Positions 12,709 to 55,818 of a stretch of 64,000 nucleotides of DNA are shown in pieces. The stretch lies in the IMG/VR virus record IMGVR_UViG_3300045146_000225, positions 1-64,000 of that record; one strand, given 5' to 3'. The notes beneath the pieces are model-generated. The model searched no databases, was not told where the DNA came from, and saw nothing but the letters and a program-made list of their open reading frames with translations. Source of the stretch: a virus (taxonomy: Duplodnaviria; Heunggongvirae; Uroviricota; Caudoviricetes). The position numbers and the translations under genes were made by a program. Position 1 is the stretch's first letter; every line of letters begins with the position of its first letter.

Positions 12709-12783
12709 GTGGATCATATTGGAATCGAACCAATTACCTACTGATTATGAGTCAGCCGCTCTAACCGATTGAGCTAATGATCC
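12709..12783 (-). tRNA. tRNA-Met (anticodon CAT). It could be an elongator, an initiator, or an Ile2 lysidine-type tRNA.
   Basis: rc gives TGGATCA-TTAGCTCAATCGGTTAGAGC-GGCTGACTCATAATCAGTAGG-TAAT-TGGTTCGATTCCAAT-ATGATCCA. That is a 7-bp acceptor stem, D and T arms, a TTCGATT T-loop and a CAT anticodon. No CCA is encoded. Confidence 0.8.
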
Positions 12784-13006
12784 ATTAAAATCAATCTCTA
12801 ACTATCATGTTACCACATTTCGGACAGAACTTCTCTTTCGTTATGGGACCAACCTTACAACATTCTGTAAAATTAATACCAGCAAAACTAAGTGATTCGC
12901 CACAGGTAACTTTCAAAAGCTTGGTTCTACCAACAACCAAAGTTCTGAAAAACATGATGAAATCATATATGTACACCTTTAACAATATTTTTTTTCTATA
13001 AGTTAG

Positions 13007-13014
13007 AATCACAA
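13007..13014 (-). promoter_or_regulatory. Bacteroidota-type -7 box (TAnnTTTG) facing the tRNA.
   Basis: rc of caaatata is TATATTTG. It is preceded on the transcript by an imperfect hairpin (13040-13075) and a T-run. Confidence 0.4.
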
Positions 13015-13105
13015 AACAAATATACTACTTTTTTTAAATAAAAAACACCGCATGCCTAAAAATATTTTAGGTATGTGGTTCGATTAATAATATTCCTCGT
13101 CAAAC

Positions 13106-13602: not shown

Positions 13603-14805
13603 TCAAATGAAATTGGAAGAAATTACCGTATCGCCTGAGTGGTAATAAGGATGTTTCACCAAAAACATTTGTTTGTATTGGGAACCGTAAGTACCCAAAG
13701 CGAACCGAGCCAGTGAATTTGTCGCACCGACAGTATCGGCATCGCGTGAAACACCACACTTCACACAAACAAATTCTCCCTGACTTGCTCGGTTCGCCTT
13801 CTCCCTGTGGTTACAGTATGGGCATGTAATAGAATTACCATAAGCGGACACTCTCCGAAGAGAGACACCGTTCTCCTCGGTTAGCATTTGAATCCTGCTG
13901 TTTATTCTACCAATAGACCAACCAGTGAGAACAGACCGCATATTTTTACTCAGGCGACCTCTGAGTTTACTCTTGCTTTTTAGTTTACTCTTGCTTTTTA
14001 GTTTACTCTTGTTTTTGATTTTCCGGTTGTCCTCTAGGACAAGCAGCCGTAAAGTATCAAATGGAATCTGCTTTATGGAATGATCTATGTATTCAAGGAT
14101 CTCCTCTCTACACGCATGCCATGCTGTTGAATTTCGTTTCTTACGTTTCAGTTTTTGTAGCAGTGGCATCATTTTTGACCCGTAATGGTTTCCTTCATCG
14201 TCATTGATGACATGTACAGCACCAGGATCTACACCAATGATGTTTCCTTCCGTATTCTTTACTTTTTCACATTCAAATGAAAACTGGACATATTTATCGG
14301 TCAAGATAACCGATGCACACAGCGTCCCTTTAGATTTCCATTTGTTGAACATTTTGTTCTTTTTCAATGGAATTGCCACAGAAACTGCTCTCTCACGTGA
14401 ATCAAAACAACGCAAATCAACCAACAGATCGAATCCTTTCAGTTCTGGATTCAGTTGAATATTTACATTCGTACAGCTAAGTAGAATACGACTCGAATTA
14501 TGATGCGGTCGTGAATATGGCTTGTTCAATTCATCAGCACTGCGTTTGGTTCCAAGAACCAAAGCATGTGCTTCAGCGAATGCATTCTTCTTTGCTCTAG
14601 CGGTCAACCACGATTCGCATCTTGATAGGTTCTCTGCTAACAACAAAGATGGTTTCTTCATTCCATTCAATATATCAGATTCGTGATGCTCGATAGCCCA
14701 GGTCACAACTCTATGCATTTCAGATATGAATTCACGGATCGAAGTCAACTTCGATTCTGTTATCCACTTGCCGAAATGGCATTTTGATGATCTAATGTAT
14801 TTCAT
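13603..14805 (-). CDS. tnpB: IS200/IS605-family TnpB (OrfB) RNA-guided nuclease homolog, full length with an intact RuvC triad.
   Basis: IGVDPG (RuvC-I), LVLEDN (RuvC-II), zinc finger CPYCN...CVKCG, and DADTVGATN (RuvC-III). There is a KSKLKS x3 repeat (18-bp DNA repeat, 13967-14020). Confidence 0.85.
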   Translation of the reverse strand: MKYIRSSKCHFGKWITESKLTSIREFISEMHRVVTWAIEHHESDILNGMKKPSLLLAENLSRCESWLTARAKKNAFAEAHALVLGTKRSADELNKPYSRPHHNSSRILLSCTNVNIQLNPELKGFDLLVDLRCFDSRERAVSVAIPLKKNKMFNKWKSKGTLCASVILTDKYVQFSFECEKVKNTEGNIIGVDPGAVHVINDDEGNHYGSKMMPLLQKLKRKKRNSTAWHACREEILEYIDHSIKQIPFDTLRLLVLEDNRKIKNKSKLKSKSKLKSKSKLRGRLSKNMRSVLTGWSIGRINSRIQMLTEENGVSLRRVSAYGNSITCPYCNHREKANRASQGEFVCVKCGVSRDADTVGATNSLARFALGTYGSQYKQMFLVKHPYYHSGDTVISSNFI

Positions 14806-15111: not shown

Positions 15112-15195
15112 TGTTTAAATTAAAAATAAAAACCTAGTTTATGTTTGGACCCCATTTTAAAATGAAATCACATTGCAAATATACAAATATTTTAG
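15112..15195 (-). repeat. Duplicated promoter and leader cassette, copy A (about 84 bp, about 93 % identical to 16015-16098).
   Basis: Contains TATATTTG (15176-15183, minus) and the shared leader ttaaaatgggRNNcaaacataaactaggtttttatttttaat. Confidence 0.7.
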
Positions 15196-15230
15196 GAATC
15201 CTGATACTTCCAATCAAATATACTTTAAAA
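15193..15230. repeat. 38-bp direct repeat, copy 2 (upstream of the tnpB unit, overlapping the stop of 15214-15513).
   Basis: Identical to 13390-13427. Confidence 0.8.
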
Positions 15231-15513
15231 AATCTTCTAAGTATCCTATCGATCCCATTATATAACCATACAATGTGCCATTTACAAGTTTATCGTTTTT
15301 AATAATGCGTTTTTGAATTAGAAATAACTCATAAGTTCCGTACCCATTCTCCCTTAATTTCTTCAAAATATAATCTTTACTATTTGTTGCTGAGTAAATA
15401 AAATAGTCCAGCAATTCATAATCATCGACATTTTCAATATTTCTTTCAATCTTTTGTTTTATGAGATTTAAAGAATCGATATCAAATTTTTGATTTTGTT
15501 CATTCATAATCAT
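15214..15513 (-). CDS. Hypothetical protein (99 aa).
   Basis: ORF with a 4-nt start/stop overlap to the upstream gene. Confidence 0.45.
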   Translation of the reverse strand: MIMNEQNQKFDIDSLNLIKQKIERNIENVDDYELLDYFIYSATNSKDYILKKLRENGYGTYELFLIQKRIIKNDKLVNGTLYGYIMGSIGYLEDFLKYI

Positions 15514-16013
15514 ACAATTGGTTCTTGTGGTGGAGGCATTGTGTTTTTTTGTAATTCCCTTAAATATAAATCTCTCTTTGCTTTAAATTCGGAGAATAGT
15601 TCTTCTGCTTTAGTATCATAATTTTGCAATTTTGAGTTTATTTCTTCATAGTGTTCTTTAAAGTATTTTGCAACTTGATTTTCCGCACTAATATAAGATG
15701 CAACAACAATAGATAATAGCAACGTTACAATGATACCTAAATAAACAAGAAAATCATCCAATCTTTTATTAATTGAATTTAATTTTTCATCAAATTGCTC
15801 AATTTCGCTCTTTAATTCAATGTCTTTTTCTATGTCGCCTTTCTTTTTGTTGAGTGCTAGTGTTTTCTTCATCTCAAATTTGATTTGAGAAACAAGCTTG
15901 TTTTTTTCAAAAGAATATATGGTTAATTGAGCGAGAAAAGCAAAAGCAATACATAATAAGACTATAAACATAACGCTTTTTTGTGAGTCTTTTATTATCA
16001 TTAAAAATTTCAT
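15510..16013 (-). CDS. Membrane protein with two transmembrane segments flanking a coiled coil (167 aa).
   Basis: Hydrophobic segments FIVLLCIAFAFLAQL and LGIIVTLLLSIVVASYI. The promoter box CAAATATA at 16078-16085 is rc TATATTTG. Confidence 0.5.
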   Translation of the reverse strand: MKFLMIIKDSQKSVMFIVLLCIAFAFLAQLTIYSFEKNKLVSQIKFEMKKTLALNKKKGDIEKDIELKSEIEQFDEKLNSINKRLDDFLVYLGIIVTLLLSIVVASYISAENQVAKYFKEHYEEINSKLQNYDTKAEELFSEFKAKRDLYLRELQKNTMPPPQEPIV

Positions 16014-16014
16014 T

Positions 16015-16098
16015 TTATCAATTAAAAATAAAAACCTAGTTTATGTTTGCATCCCATTTTAAAATGAAATCACATTGCAAATATACAAATATTTTAAA
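16015..16098 (-). repeat. Duplicated promoter and leader cassette, copy B. It drives 15510-16013.
   Basis: Same sequence as 15112-15195. Confidence 0.7.
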
Positions 16099-16122
16099 TA
16101 AAAACACCGCACACCTAAAAAT

Positions 16123-16359
16123 ATTTTAGCTGAGCTATCTCAGTCTGAGATTTCCCTGCTTGTACTAAACAAGAAATTTGATACCTTTGTTGTTCGGTTA
16201 TATGAACCAAAGTGCAACTTGTTTTTGGGAGACTTAGGGGGGCAATTTAGCAAATATACCCATCAAGGCAAAGAGGTAATTTCTTACCATCTTTGTTTTG
16301 ATGGATATATTTGATTTTTATTACCATTCCCAAAGTTGCATTTACTACTTGAATCTAAG
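16123..16359 (+). repeat. About 225-bp intergenic repeat element, copy 1. It is an IS30-end-like, MITE-like or structured-RNA candidate.
   Basis: About 90 % identical to 37022-37238. It starts attttagctgagc and ends ccaaagttgcatttactacttgaatctaag. Internal hairpins are present, and there is an internal CAAATATA box. Confidence 0.7.
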
Positions 16360-17196: not shown

Positions 17197-17265
17197 TTTT
17201 AAATGTTTTTTTTTATTGTTCTCATAAATTTAATTTGCAAATATACTACTTTTTTAAATAAAAAA

Positions 17266-17298
17266 CACCGCATATAAAATTTTTTCCCACATGCGGTG
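17266..17298 (-). terminator. Rho-independent terminator after 17319-19511. A host-type promoter follows immediately.
   Basis: caccgcat...atgcggtg forms an 8-bp stem. On the minus transcript it is followed by UUUUUUAUUU and then GTAGTATATTTG. Confidence 0.6.
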
Positions 17299-27524: not shown

Positions 27525-27740
27525 TTATTTCAAATCTTTCCTCTCGTCGCAGAGTTTCTGGACCAATTTTGCACTGTATGGACGCTTGTTACAGTTCCAG
27601 TTAATCTCCCGGTAAACCGTGCTCATGTCCGTCTCAACTATCTGAGCAATTTTATTTTTCGGTGTTCCTGTTTGGAGCAAAGCATCAATTTGATACCTTT
27701 GCTCTATGGTAGTCGATTTCCCCCGTTTCGTTATTTGCCA
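27525..27740 (-). pseudogene. IS30-family transposase N-terminal HTH fragment. It has no start codon and begins in frame directly after the ligA stop.
   Basis: TIEQRYQIDALLQTGTPKNKIAQIVETDMSTVYREINWNCNKRPYSAKL matches IS30 LSEREEIRAGL...IATALNRSPSTISREVQRNRGRRYYKA. Confidence 0.45.
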
Positions 27741-29809
<2,069 letters not shown>

Positions 29810-36571: not shown

Positions 36572-36755
36572 AATATCTGGTTTCGTTATTTATGCTTGTA
36601 CCTAACTTACTTATATGCTTACCAAAGGTGCGAATTTACTACATATGTTTGTTGTATATGCGTACTTTTTTGTTGCCAAATATAGCACAAATATATGTTT
36701 TTTTTAAATATCATCGAATGGGGATTTGATTTTTTTTTGCAATTCTTTGTTACGA

Positions 36756-36823
36756 CAGAAGGTGAATGGGATGGCACAAGAGCATACGGTGAAACGCTGT
36801 TGGCTGGTAGAAAAACACTTGAA
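36756..36823 (+). repeat. 68-bp identical duplicate of an internal segment of gene 37772-38350 (the other copy is at 37937-38004).
   Basis: cagaaggtgaatgggatggcacaagagcatacggtgaaacgctgttggctggtagaaaaacacttgaa at both sites. Confidence 0.85.
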
Positions 36824-36871
36824 GGTAGATTCAAGCTTCAAATGCAACTTTAGTAAGTGCAAATTTATAAT

Positions 36872-37024
36872 TTAAAAATTCAATGTACGAAGAAAATTTA
36901 TGTTTTTTTTTCGCGGTAGCGTATTAAGTTTATCCTTAACACGCTTAATATCCTCATCAGTAATATTTTCAAAAGATGATTTCTTGGGAAAATACTGCCG
37001 AATCAAGCCATTCACATTCTCATT
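36872..37024 (-). pseudogene. IS30-family transposase C-terminal fragment. An IS-end-like sequence extends to 36823.
   Basis: NENVNGLIRQYFPKK...LNTLPRKKNINF matches the IS30 C-terminus NENTNGLIRQYFPKK...LNNRPRKTLKF. The adjacent sequence ggtagattcaagcttcaaatgcaactttag matches 22 of 30 positions of the 225-bp element terminus. Confidence 0.55.
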
Positions 37025-37238
37025 TTAGCTGAGCTTCTCAGTCTTGGATTTCCCTGCTTGTACTAAACAAGAAATTTGATACCTTTGTTGTTCGGTTATA
37101 TGAGCAAAAGTGCAACTTGTCTTGGGAGACTTAGGGGGGTAATTTAGCAAATAGATGGTGAGAAATTACCCCTTTGTTTTGAAAAATATTTGATTTTTAT
37201 TACCATTCCCAAAGTTGCATTTACTACTTGAATCTAAG
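37022..37238 (+). repeat. About 225-bp repeat element, copy 2.
   Basis: See 16123-16359. Confidence 0.7.
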
Positions 37239-37771: not shown

Positions 37772-38350
37772 ATGCGGCTAATAGAAACAACAATATTGGA
37801 ATACATCAACCCAATTAAAAAAACAGACGTGTTTTACCACGGATCAACAGACAAAAACATGAGCGGTAAGAACGGCATACATGTCGGAACTAAATTAGCA
37901 GCAACACAAGCACTACAAGCAAGGATAGGTGTTCCGGCAGAAGGTGAATGGGATGGCACAAGAGCATACGGTGAAACGCTGTTGGCTGGTAGAAAAACAC
38001 TTGAACTTAAAAACACGGAGTTAGGATACAACTGCACTACCGGATATAATTGCGGGAAAGATTTACCAGAAGAAGATTATTATCCCACACAAAGAGAATA
38101 TAGAGCGTCATTCTCAGATGGAACCCCCATTCCGTTCAATTGCAAACCAATCGTGTTCCCTGTTAAAATCACAGGACAAATGACAAACACGCAATCTTAC
38201 CCCCACACCGACGACAAAGCAAACTCCATGATGAAAAGGAACTTAAAAATGGGCAACGCTAAAAGTGGTTACTACTACACCAATATAGCGCAGGATTCCG
38301 GCTCGATATCTGCGGTAGTCCCAGACAAGTCATTCCTCGAAATACTGTAA
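37772..38350 (+). CDS. Hypothetical protein (192 aa).
   Basis: ORF. A terminator hairpin follows. Confidence 0.5.
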   Translation: MRLIETTILEYINPIKKTDVFYHGSTDKNMSGKNGIHVGTKLAATQALQARIGVPAEGEWDGTRAYGETLLAGRKTLELKNTELGYNCTTGYNCGKDLPEEDYYPTQREYRASFSDGTPIPFNCKPIVFPVKITGQMTNTQSYPHTDDKANSMMKRNLKMGNAKSGYYYTNIAQDSGSISAVVPDKSFLEIL

Positions 38351-46009: not shown

Positions 46010-46077
46010 TTAAAAAGATTTAAAAATTAATACTAAATATTTAACGTTTTAATATATTAAATAATTATTTTTTCGAG

Positions 46078-46200
46078 AGTAAAATTTCACTTTTTAAACT
46101 AAAAAATTATTTTTTTGGAAGCAAAATTTCACTTTTTAAACTAAAAATTTATTTTTTTGAAAGTAAAATTTCACTTTTTTAAACTAAAAATTTATTTTTA
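46078..46200. repeat. 3 x 41-bp direct repeats (gtaaaatttcactttttaaactaaaaatttatttttttg).
   Basis: Seen directly in the sequence. Confidence 0.85.
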
Positions 46201-46467
46201 CACACAGGTACACATGCACACAGGTACACACACGTACATGCGCACACATGCACACACATGCACACACGTACATGCGCACACATGCACACACGTACATGCG
46301 CACACATGCGCACACGCATTTATATATAATACTAGTATTATATATAAATGTATATAAATATAATTAATATAATTAAATATAAATTAAATATAATAAGTAT
46401 AATAAGTATAAATTAAATATAATAAATATAATAAGTATAATAAGTATAATAAGTATAATATTCGCGC

Positions 46468-47070
46468 GCGGACGTACGTATGCAAGACGTGGTTTTTTTT
46501 TCGAGTTCGGTCATAAAACAAAAACCAAGAAACTACAAATAACAGCAGCATACATTCCTTTCGAACAGAAACGATGTTTTTTTCAATTCAAATACAAAAA
46601 CAGTACATTGACACGTCTTAATATGTTTTATTCGATTTAAACGCATTTATGAACGTCGGTTTTTTCGTGTTTTTGAAACCAACAAGATTTTTCACAAAAA
46701 AAACATGCCTCGCACACGCGGACGTACGTATGCAAGACGTGGTTTTTTTTTCGAGTTATTTTTCACAAAAAAAACATGCCTCGCACACGCGGACGTACGT
46801 ATGCAAGACGTGGTTTTTTTTTCGAGTTCGGTCATAAAACAAAAACCAAGAAACTACAAATAACAGCAGCATACATTCCTTTCGAACAGAAACGATGTTT
46901 TTTTCAATCCAAATACAAAAACAGTACATTGACACGTCTTGATGTGTTTTATTCGATTTAAACGCATTTATGAGCGTTTGTTTTTTTCGTGTTTTTGAAA
47001 AACCAACAAGATTTTTCACAAAAAAAAACATGCCTCGCACACGCGGACGTACGTATGCATGGCATGTTTT
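46468..47070. repeat. Two roughly 250-bp direct repeat units, each preceded by a GC-rich palindromic core and followed by A-run / hairpin / T-run elements.
   Basis: Spacing of core copies is 250, 71 and 254 bp. The units are more than 95 % identical. Confidence 0.85.
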
Positions 47071-47319
47071 TTCCGTTATTTTAAAAACTATTGGAATTTA
47101 ACAACGACCCAAAATGGAATGTATGTAACTTAACGATGGTTTCTTGTGCGTATCAAAAAAACAAGTTTTCTTACCCTAAATGCGAGTGTAGCGTGAATTT
47201 CTACACGAGAGATGCCGTTTCTTTCCTGTGCGAGAATAAACGTAACAAATTGACAACCACTTGTTAAAAAAAACAAAAATATATTTAATTGCATTTAGCA
47301 TTTTTTAATAAAAAAGTAG

Positions 47320-54630: not shown

Positions 54631-55818
54631 ATGAAGCAATATTTAGATTTACTATCGCATATCCTTGAAAACGGGTACAAGAAGTCTGACAGGACTGGCA
54701 CGGGTACTATTTCTTCTTTCGGACACCAGATGAGGTTCGATCTGTCAGAGGGTTTCCCTCTGTTGACCACGAAGAAGTTACATACTAAATCAATATTCGC
54801 CGAGTTGTTGTGGTTCATAAGCGGCGATACTAACAACAACAACCTGGTTAGCGATGGTGTGAAGATATGGAACGAGTGGGCTGATAAAAACGGTAATCTC
54901 GGTAAGATTTATTCAGCTCAGTGGAGGTACGTTAAGTCCACAAGCGGGAGGTTTATACCGGTTGATAAGAAACACCCAGTTCACGTCGATTACAAGTACG
55001 AACCAGCGATAGCGTTGAAGCGCGGTAAGAATGTTGATATAGTTTACAACCTATGGGCTACGATCATGAACGCTTGTCATTGTACATCGTATGGTTTGTA
55101 TAATGTATATGGTGGTTATGGTGTTACGGTTAACCCAGAATGGCACAATTTAGGTAGGTTTATCAAAGATATAAGTAAAATAAAGGGGTATTCTTATTGG
55201 ATTAAAGATCCTAAAAGATACGAGTTATCGTATAACTACTTCGGTGCGGCACAGTACGGTAAAGATACATCTATATTCGTTGACCGTAGGTGTAATTATT
55301 TAAAACATGTTGAAACTGAAGGATATTGTTTATATAGGGAAGAAGAATGGATAGACCAGCTCGATGTCGCTATAAACGATATAAAGAACAACTCCGATTC
55401 GAGGAGGATAATAGTCAATTCTTGGAACGTATCCGAGCTTGATGACATGGCTTTACCGCCGTGCCATTCGTTCTTCCAGTTCTACGTCGCTGGTGGTAAG
55501 CTATCTTGCCAGATGTACCAGAGGAGCGGTGACATGTTCCTCGGTGTCCCTTTCAACATAGCTTCTTATGCTTTGTTAACACACATGGTTGCCAAGGAAT
55601 GCGGTCTTGAAGTCGGTGAGTTCATCCATACGCTTGGTGATGCTCACATATACATGAACCACGTGGAGCAATGCAAGATGCAGTTAAAGAGGGATACAAG
55701 GGAGTTACCTAGGCTTGTTCTAAGTGATGGTGTTGGTTTCTTCGATTACACGTTGGATGATATACGCATCGAGGGGTACGACCCACACCCGCATATAAAG
55801 GGTGATGTTAGTGTTTAA
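54631..55818 (+). CDS. thyA: Thymidylate synthase (ThyA family) with a roughly 110-aa insertion in the small domain.
   Basis: DRTGTGT, QWR, catalytic [12 protein letters not shown], and [15 protein letters not shown] (Asn gives dUMP specificity). It is 395 aa against roughly 265-315 for typical enzymes. Confidence 0.85.

Follow-up and report, generated by a model that had tools for sequence, protein, structure and literature searches.

Gene context and copies of the repeat

The window analysed in this work is the whole stretch of 64,000 nucleotides that spans positions 1 to 64,000 of the IMG/VR record IMGVR_UViG_3300045146_000225. Its genes, which include those for a tail sheath, a helicase, a thymidylate synthase, an RNR, an NAD-dependent ligase (ligA), several methyltransferases and a TnpB, are phage-like, and it has promoter boxes of Bacteroidota type. 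Some features of the window are recorded here independently of the repeat. The thymidylate synthase ORF (54631-55818, plus strand, 395 aa) has an HNH-endonuclease-like insert at about aa 138-225, as judged from PHROG matches. Dense simple repeats fill 46053-46460: a 42-nt unit occurs three times, 46186-46325 is a run of the ACACATGC/ACACGTAC type, and AT-rich repeats of 9 nt occupy 46363-46458. This block is followed by a 286-nt tandem pair (46467-47073). A 400-aa TnpB / Cas12f1-like ORF with a TNB domain occupies 13603-14805 on the minus strand, 1.3 kb from the first copy of the repeat; the same gene recurs in the contigs L008 and L044 at 93-96 % nucleotide identity, again near an IS30 mini-element. 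Four intergenic modules (13003-13080, 15118-15202, 16020-16129 and 17224-17290) combine a palindrome of terminator type (CACCGCA..CCTAAAAATATTTTAGG..) with a promoter box of the Bacteroidota type (minus-strand TATATTTG) after it, and the part of one of them at 16092-16129 is cut short by copy 1.

A structured repeat of 225 bp, present twice at about 90 % identity, had been described in this window by the initial annotation, and the two copies are real (Table 1). They lie in direct orientation within the one genome, and their global alignment (237 nt versus 217 nt) comprises 205 matches, 12 mismatches and 20 gap columns, i.e. 94.5 % identity over aligned columns and 86.5 % when gaps are counted; every large gap falls within a single hairpin region. 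Of the terminal 30-mer CCAAAGTTGCATTTACTACTTGAATCTAAG the window has exactly three occurrences, on the minus strand at 16330-16359 and 37209-37238 and on the plus strand at 29780-29809; shuffled sequence gave 0 matches even with three mismatches permitted. The third occurrence, already noted as a recurrence of the last 30 bp, is therefore an exact match, with the correction that it is inverted relative to the other two. The likeness of this terminus to what had been called an "IS30 end" was measured as 81 % over 31 nt between the IRL and the IRR of the window (36824-36853; complementary stretch 36826-36856).

The minus-oriented TATATTTG box of copy 1 (16251-16258) and the direct IR-like motif inside the repeat (16208-16238) were both recovered, and the full-length parent described below has this motif too. 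Since the repeat, the threefold 30-mer, the IR likeness, the box and the motif all held, the earlier description was accurate. Its internal hairpins (cttgt/acaag and ggtt/aacc) also exist and are located in the remnant of the N-terminal transposase coding sequence; the dominant stem-loop at 16251-16313 had not been singled out.

Exact-protein look-up retrieved near-identical contigs, whose identity over the elements is about 100 %; all carry the three pieces unchanged and several break at the IR. As every one of these relatives carries all three pieces, no empty site was found among them, and a ligA-based search of IMG/VR for more distant phage relatives returned none, so that it provided no empty site either. 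In blastn, neither the element nor the segment 27000-40000 matched any of 50,697 phage records. The parent and other derivatives were present in other (metagenome) contigs.

Table 1. Positions of the IS30-derived features of the window, and of two full-length relatives
Feature	Position	Strand	Description
Copy 1	16123-16359	-	One-ended left-end fragment of an IS30-family element; parent nt 1-230 plus 3 nt matching the form-A deletion junction; without IRR
IRL of copy 1	16330-16359	-	CTTAGATTCAAGTAGTAAATGCAACTTTGG; same sequence as in the full-length IS; shares the TAGATTCAA..GT.AA.GCAAC core with the E. coli IS30 IRs
Leader hairpin	16251-16313	-	MFE structure with about 27 predicted pairs and small internal loops; 3' arm holds the TATATTTG box (16251-16258)
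Remnant transposase ORF	16115-16210	-	Opens with TTG (16208-16210); MVHITEQQRYQISCLVQAGKSQTEIAQLK is followed by 2 foreign codons and a stop
Flank of copy 1	16092-16129		Palindrome of terminator type, truncated (CACCGCACACCTAAAAATATTTTAG); meets the IS fragment at the common heptamer CTAAAAT
Solo IRL	29780-29809	+	Exactly 30 nt, parent nt 1-30 only; tip at 29780
Partial duplicate	36748-36823	+	76 nt, 97 % identical to 37930-38005 inside ORF 37772-38350 (repeat family D13); ends exactly at the IRR tip
Form-A mini-IS, MITE-like	36824-37238	-	415 bp; IRL 37209-37238, IRR 36824-36853
Copy 2	37022-37238	-	Left portion of the 415-bp unit
Mini-IS, 5' part	37025-37238	-	Parent nt 1-230 (blastn)
Mini-IS, 3' part	36828-37025	-	Parent nt 931-1126 (blastn)
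Mini-IS deletion junction	~37022-37028	-	GCTCAGCTAA joined to AATGAGAAT; out of frame; 2-3 nt A-run microhomology
Full-length parent IS	L052:856-1985		1130 bp; IRL identical to the window 30-mer, same leader, intact transposase
Second full-length relative	L014:2279-3398		About 1120 bp; 328-aa transposase

An IS30-family parent and its derivatives

Far from being self-contained, the 225-bp repeat is the left end of an IS30-family IS. Read on the minus strand, it corresponds to nt 1-230 of such an element, comprising the IRL, a leader with a hairpin and the TATATTTG box, and the first 28 transposase codons (HTH_38 domain). The parent was recovered by a metagenome scan for the IRL, and additional full-length copies were found in the metagenome contigs L057 and L058. 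A search with the remnant peptides returned only other remnants (54-160 aa); the exact IRL 30-mer was absent from the genome contigs and viral contigs searched, and a 50-mer of the coding part from the viral contigs searched. Using a degenerate IR pattern, the IR type was found in MAGs of Chitinophagales, Saprospiraceae, Flavobacterium, Flavobacteriaceae and Cytophagia, often at contig ends, and the full-length relative in L014 was located as well.

The parent transposase (325/342 aa), whose ORF ends inside the IRR, scored 297 bits against the NCBIfam model transpos_IS30 (NF033563, cutoff 80), matched Pfam HTH_38 (5e-11) and rve (1e-10), and is 33 % identical to InsI of E. coli IS30 (E = 1e-48). 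IS30 transposases typically have HTH_38 as their DNA-binding domain at the N-terminus. The parent IRs share TAGATTCAA..GT.AA.GCAAC with both IRs of E. coli IS30, and the window IRL and IRR both align to its IRL TGTAGATTCAATTGGTCAACGCAAC and its IRR TGTAGATTCAATCTGTCAATGCAAC, taken from the E. coli K-12 annotation (MG1655); the IR core string had no relevant match in the literature. A size of about 1.0-1.25 kb with one near-full-length ORF was found for the parent and for the relative in L014, while the window copies (415, 237 and 30 bp) fall short of an intact element in size and ORF and are derivatives. Neither a TSD of 2-3 bp nor a consistent longer flanking repeat was seen at the eight complete copies inspected. 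As the transposase, the IRs and the architecture are all of the IS30 type, and the TSD is the sole defining feature unseen, the parent of the window pieces belongs to the IS30 family on protein, IRs and architecture. The flanks of complete copies may have been swapped by recombination, as suggested by L057 and L045, which share one flank only.

The remnant peptide of copy 1 matched Pfam HTH_38 at E = 5.5e-4 over profile positions 4-28 of 44; a match of only 29 aa is expected to fall below the Pfam cutoff, as this one does. A tblastn search with the L052 transposase gave 89 % identity to this remnant over aa 9-46. In blastn, parent nt 1-230 aligned to 16359-16126 at 93.2 %. Copy 1 is closer still to the 5' part of a complete form-A mini-IS in the contig L048 (96.2 %, versus 86.5-94.5 % to copy 2), which argues against a simple duplication within the genome. 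No IRR was found for copy 1 within 1400 nt; having a single end, it is an immobile fragment and not a MITE. The hairpin on its flank has intact paralogues at 13045-13080 (repeat family D15) and near 17260; the absent arm would have started with ...CCTAAAAT. Copy 1 breaks at parent nt 230, as do copy 2 and the L048 element, and the next 3 nt of the form-A junction are also common to them. Since independent deletions are not expected to stop at the same parent nucleotide, copy 1 and form A probably share an origin. Most likely, copy 1 descends from a form-A mini-IS that would have lost its right part and its IRR in a deletion at the 7-nt CTAAAAT microhomology; this scenario rests on the shared breakpoint and the microhomology, no intermediate having been observed.

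Copy 2 and the adjoining "IS30 end" are one contiguous, internally deleted IS, and matching the IRL/IRR pattern returns the same length of 415. The deletion has removed parent nt ~231-930, about 700 bp from within the transposase gene; both IRs are kept, and the first 28 and the last ~65 transposase codons are retained. The C-terminal remnant NENVNGLIRQYFPKK... (37024 down to 36831, minus strand) matched positions 229-267 of 267 of NF033563 (E = 5.9e-13); the query was a translation corrected by eye for a frameshift, and the profile match is confined to its first ~39 residues, before the A-run frameshift. This additional frameshift, in an A-run of the mini-IS tail, is seen both in the two tblastn frames and in the ORF list. 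As the mini-IS is still recognisably coding-derived, it is a young deletion derivative and not an amplified MITE family. It is short, has no functional transposase and has both IRs, as expected of a two-ended MITE, a description that neither 16123-16359 nor 29780-29809 fits. Its IRR tip reads GGTAG... versus GGCGG... in the parent (2 of the first 4 nt differ), so that it may no longer be a substrate for the transposase. The duplicate of 76 nt that abuts this tip suggests a rearrangement associated with insertion, namely an earlier insertion into ORF 37772-38350 or a paralogue, followed by rearrangement.

The solo IRL lies 12 nt upstream of the ligA ATG (29766-29768, minus strand) and was present in all six near-identical contigs examined; a similar solo IRL of 36 nt occurs in L044/L051. 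We infer that it is the scar of an IS copy upstream of ligA whose body was deleted. On the other side of the gene, right after the ligA stop, a 67-codon open frame without an ATG (27537-27737, minus strand) matched HTH_38 (E = 2e-5). With 38 % identity to the N-terminal end of the parent IS30 transposase, it is a second, divergent IS30-type relic. Together with the solo IRL, this relic gives ligA IS30 remnants on both sides. That ligA is the cargo of a decayed composite transposon is unsupported, the downstream relic being only 38 % identical and without IR or leader. To read the segment 29780-37238, which has outward-facing IRLs and contains Dam and Eco57I-like genes, as a composite transposon would be speculation; no TSD and no variant without the segment were found.

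Several derivatives occur in other contigs. The form-A junction recurs in L048 (3692-4123, 432 bp) and in L047, with flanks that are unrelated on both sides. The same junction within different flanks in L048 indicates that the 415-bp derivative appears to have moved, or to have been moved, in one piece; one and the same internal deletion thus stands at several unrelated sites, with the caveats that copy number is small and that recombination could also move copies. A second mini-IS, form B (301-304 bp), joins the IRL plus 68 nt to ...SWERGANEN..., with one junction at at least three sites. Further sizes in related contigs are ~115 bp and the solo IRL of 36 nt. The ~115-bp mini-element (L045:10915 / L048:6318 / L047:6834) consists of the IRL, about 48 nt of leader and a perfect 38-nt palindrome of the IRR tip, TGGCGGATTCAAGCTGCATTTGCAGCTTGAATCCGCCA.

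The contigs bearing these pieces encode an Eco57I-like enzyme and SMC/Rad50-like, PNK-like, NUDIX, TnpB and LeuRS proteins, and have both a promoter-like repeat and the TnpB region in common with the window. They (L044-L048, with many copies and with LeuRS among their genes) are presumably related large phages. The LeuRS is a 926-aa leucyl-tRNA synthetase (L045:1460-4240, minus strand), on a contig that otherwise resembles a large phage related to the window. Full-length copies, too, were found in phage-like contexts. That of L057 shares 219 nt of its left flank, at 99.7 %, with the form-B site at L045:4547, and differs in its right flank (a primase Zn-ribbon gene versus LeuRS); that of L058 lies inside the tail of another copy. 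On account of this one-flank sharing and this nesting, the IS copies sit at mosaic boundaries. Three IRL tips (L045:8464, L045:10915 and L043:5193) adjoin the same phage promoter-like sequence (...TGCGTACCTTTTGTTGCCWAATATAG abutting CTTAG), the IS standing 1 nt from a minus-strand TATATTTG box. Positions 36596-36686 of the window are an uninterrupted version of that sequence, and the coincidence could be due to target preference or to block duplication.

One 36-kb contig carries five IS30-derived pieces. This density, the one-flank sharing, the nesting and the three IRLs at one promoter box have led us to consider that the mini-elements may transpose actively within the large Bacteroidota phage lineage and act as portable homology between phages. 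We hold this reading to be tentative and rather unlikely; if true, the mini-elements would help to drive module shuffling (mosaicism) and would occasionally rewire phage promoters or terminators.

Leader hairpin and alternative readings

The dominant structure of the repeat lies between the IRL and the transposase start, in a leader of about 120 nt in copy 1. Folding, which the initial annotation had proposed as a check, indeed gave a strong structure: relative to shuffled controls, the z-score of the MFE of the whole element is -6.7 for the minus strand and -4.6 for the plus strand, a signal that comes mainly from the IS leader hairpin. The TATATTTG box in its 3' arm we take, from the Bacteroidota consensus, to be the -7 promoter element of the transposase gene. 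The parent in L052 carries the same leader hairpin and box, and a hairpin at the same position, with other stem sequences, is found in IS30 relatives of Chitinophagales, Saprospiraceae and Cytophagia MAGs; a consensus of six sequences has 12 pairs, 3 of them with compensatory changes. The inner stem-loop is flipped in copy 1 (GGTAAGAAATTACC versus GGTAATTTCTTACC), the loop being GGTAA-GAAA-TTACC as against GGTAA-TTTC-TTACC in L052. In copy 2, 20 nt of the hairpin are lost and the box is degenerate (TCTATTTG). Both the hairpin and the promoter box are inherited from the leader of the parent IS, and the earlier proposal of a mobile promoter module accordingly found no support.

The alternative that retains most weight, which we nevertheless judge improbable, is that the pieces are domesticated regulatory modules: the left end would have been kept as its leftward promoter (toward ORF 15510-16013), its terminator-like hairpin on the plus strand, or the IRL at ligA controls phage genes. 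Copy 1 does keep an intact TATATTTG box (TAnnTTTG) and the most perfect version of the hairpin, with a terminator-like site called at 16287-16304 on the plus strand, but hairpin and box are unchanged from the parent IS, and neither has been spared in copy 2. ORF 15510-16013, moreover, owns a promoter module, which is repeated at four intergenic sites (D9, D12). The IRL tip adjoins a phage promoter box (CTAAG, then C, then TATATTTGG) at three places in other contigs, yet there is no TAnnTTTG box between the solo IRL and the ligA ATG. All pieces are kept in all near-identical strains, a retention that, among strains of roughly 100 % identity, is uninformative on selection.

The second alternative is a simple duplication of non-mobile DNA within the genome, the solo 30-mer having arisen by chance or by partial gene conversion. 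Two direct-orientation copies in one genome and the lack of visible TSDs would suit it. It had been anticipated that absence of the repeat from any other genome would favour such a local duplication, but other contigs contain a full-length parent IS and further deletion derivatives, the same junction stands amid unrelated flanks, copy 1 is nearer to the L048 copy than to copy 2, and the 30-mer occurs exactly three times where none is expected. The external copies refute a local duplication, and we give it very little credence.

Least credible of all is a small structured RNA gene (an sRNA or a cis-regulatory RNA) duplicated in the phage, as had also been suggested: the low folding energy on both strands would agree with it, but the structure is one long DNA palindrome of the IS leader, with 20 nt gone in copy 2, the remainder of the element is transposase coding sequence, and the proposed Rfam scan of the element, once run, returned no family at gathering thresholds, only a plant miRNA model appearing at E <= 1 (MIR476, E = 0.23, 21 bits versus 80). 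The sole Rfam match at gathering score in the window is a tRNA-Met (12709-12783).

Proposed history and comparison with known systems

We consider it highly probable that the repeat is debris of an IS30-family IS in a large tailed Bacteroidota phage, comprising a gutted 415-bp copy, a one-ended fragment and a 30-bp scar. According to this history, an autonomous parent (about 1130 bp, with 30-bp IRs and an HTH_38 + DDE/rve transposase), of a lineage common in Bacteroidota, would have entered a large tailed phage of such hosts. The 415-bp derivative would be non-autonomous and MITE-like, and full-length copies, whether in the host or in a co-infecting phage, may have supplied the transposase that mobilised it in trans. 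A form-A mini-IS may then have inserted beside a terminator hairpin, where a deletion between two CTAAAAT heptamers would have removed its tail, the IRR and one hairpin arm, leaving copy 1. Another IS copy, upstream of ligA, would have been deleted down to a 30-nt IRL. The suggestion of a MITE-like IS30 derivative in the initial annotation thus stands as regards the IS30 origin and the two-ended element at 36824-37238, and fails for copy 1 and the solo IRL, which are one-ended relics.

None of the window pieces encodes a functional protein. Their present-day effects are likely passive, i.e. dispersed homology for recombination and the disruption of one terminator hairpin. For annotation, a "structured repeat" has been resolved to ordinary transposon debris, which avoids the label of an sRNA or a novel mobile promoter. 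Genomes of Chitinophagales, Saprospiraceae, Flavobacterium and Cytophagia carry this IS lineage with its IRs, which offers a host range link for an uncultured phage. One contig family, furthermore, displays a miniaturisation series, from 1130 bp to 415, ~300 and ~115 bp and on to solo IRs of 36 and 30 nt, with microhomology at two junctions.

Elements of the IS30 family are already well known, and so are deletion derivatives of them and MITEs. Like the parent, E. coli IS30 has only one transposase (InsI), a DDE enzyme that combines an HTH_38 at its N-terminus with an rve core; in both elements the IRs measure about 26-30 bp and share TAGATTCAA..GT.AA.GCAAC, and the ORF ends inside the IRR. E. 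coli IS30A is 1221 bp long (MG1655 annotation), as compared with 1130 bp for the parent, which belongs to a Bacteroidota lineage and has a shorter transposase (325 versus 383 aa). In contrast to E. coli IS30, the parent lineage has a leader of 120-170 nt in which a hairpin is conserved and which carries a promoter box of the TAnnTTTG type; no TSD of 2-3 bp could be detected at any copy examined, and the window holds deletion derivatives only.

MITEs common to phages and their hosts (vMITEs), Bacteroidota included, have already been surveyed (PMC11602168). Like these bacterial MITEs and vMITEs, the element at 36824-37238 is small, lacks a functional transposase and has both IRs of a co-occurring autonomous IS; form A likewise shows the same internal junction at more than one site, and the host phylum, Bacteroidota, is the same. 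The window elements differ from bacterial MITEs in their very low copy number, in the lack of visible TSDs and in being coding-derived.

Phage IS30 elements, such as that of the Staphylococcus prophage phiPV83, resemble the present case in that an IS30-family element resides in a phage genome. IS30-type transposases were detected by tblastn in 46 of the 50,697 phage records, at no more than 40 % identity to the parent transposase; given this rarity, a phage lineage with several such pieces is mildly notable for work on virus-transposon relationships. The known phage elements are intact transposase genes, mostly in temperate phages, whereas here multiple truncated derivatives are found in a large, myovirus-like genome.
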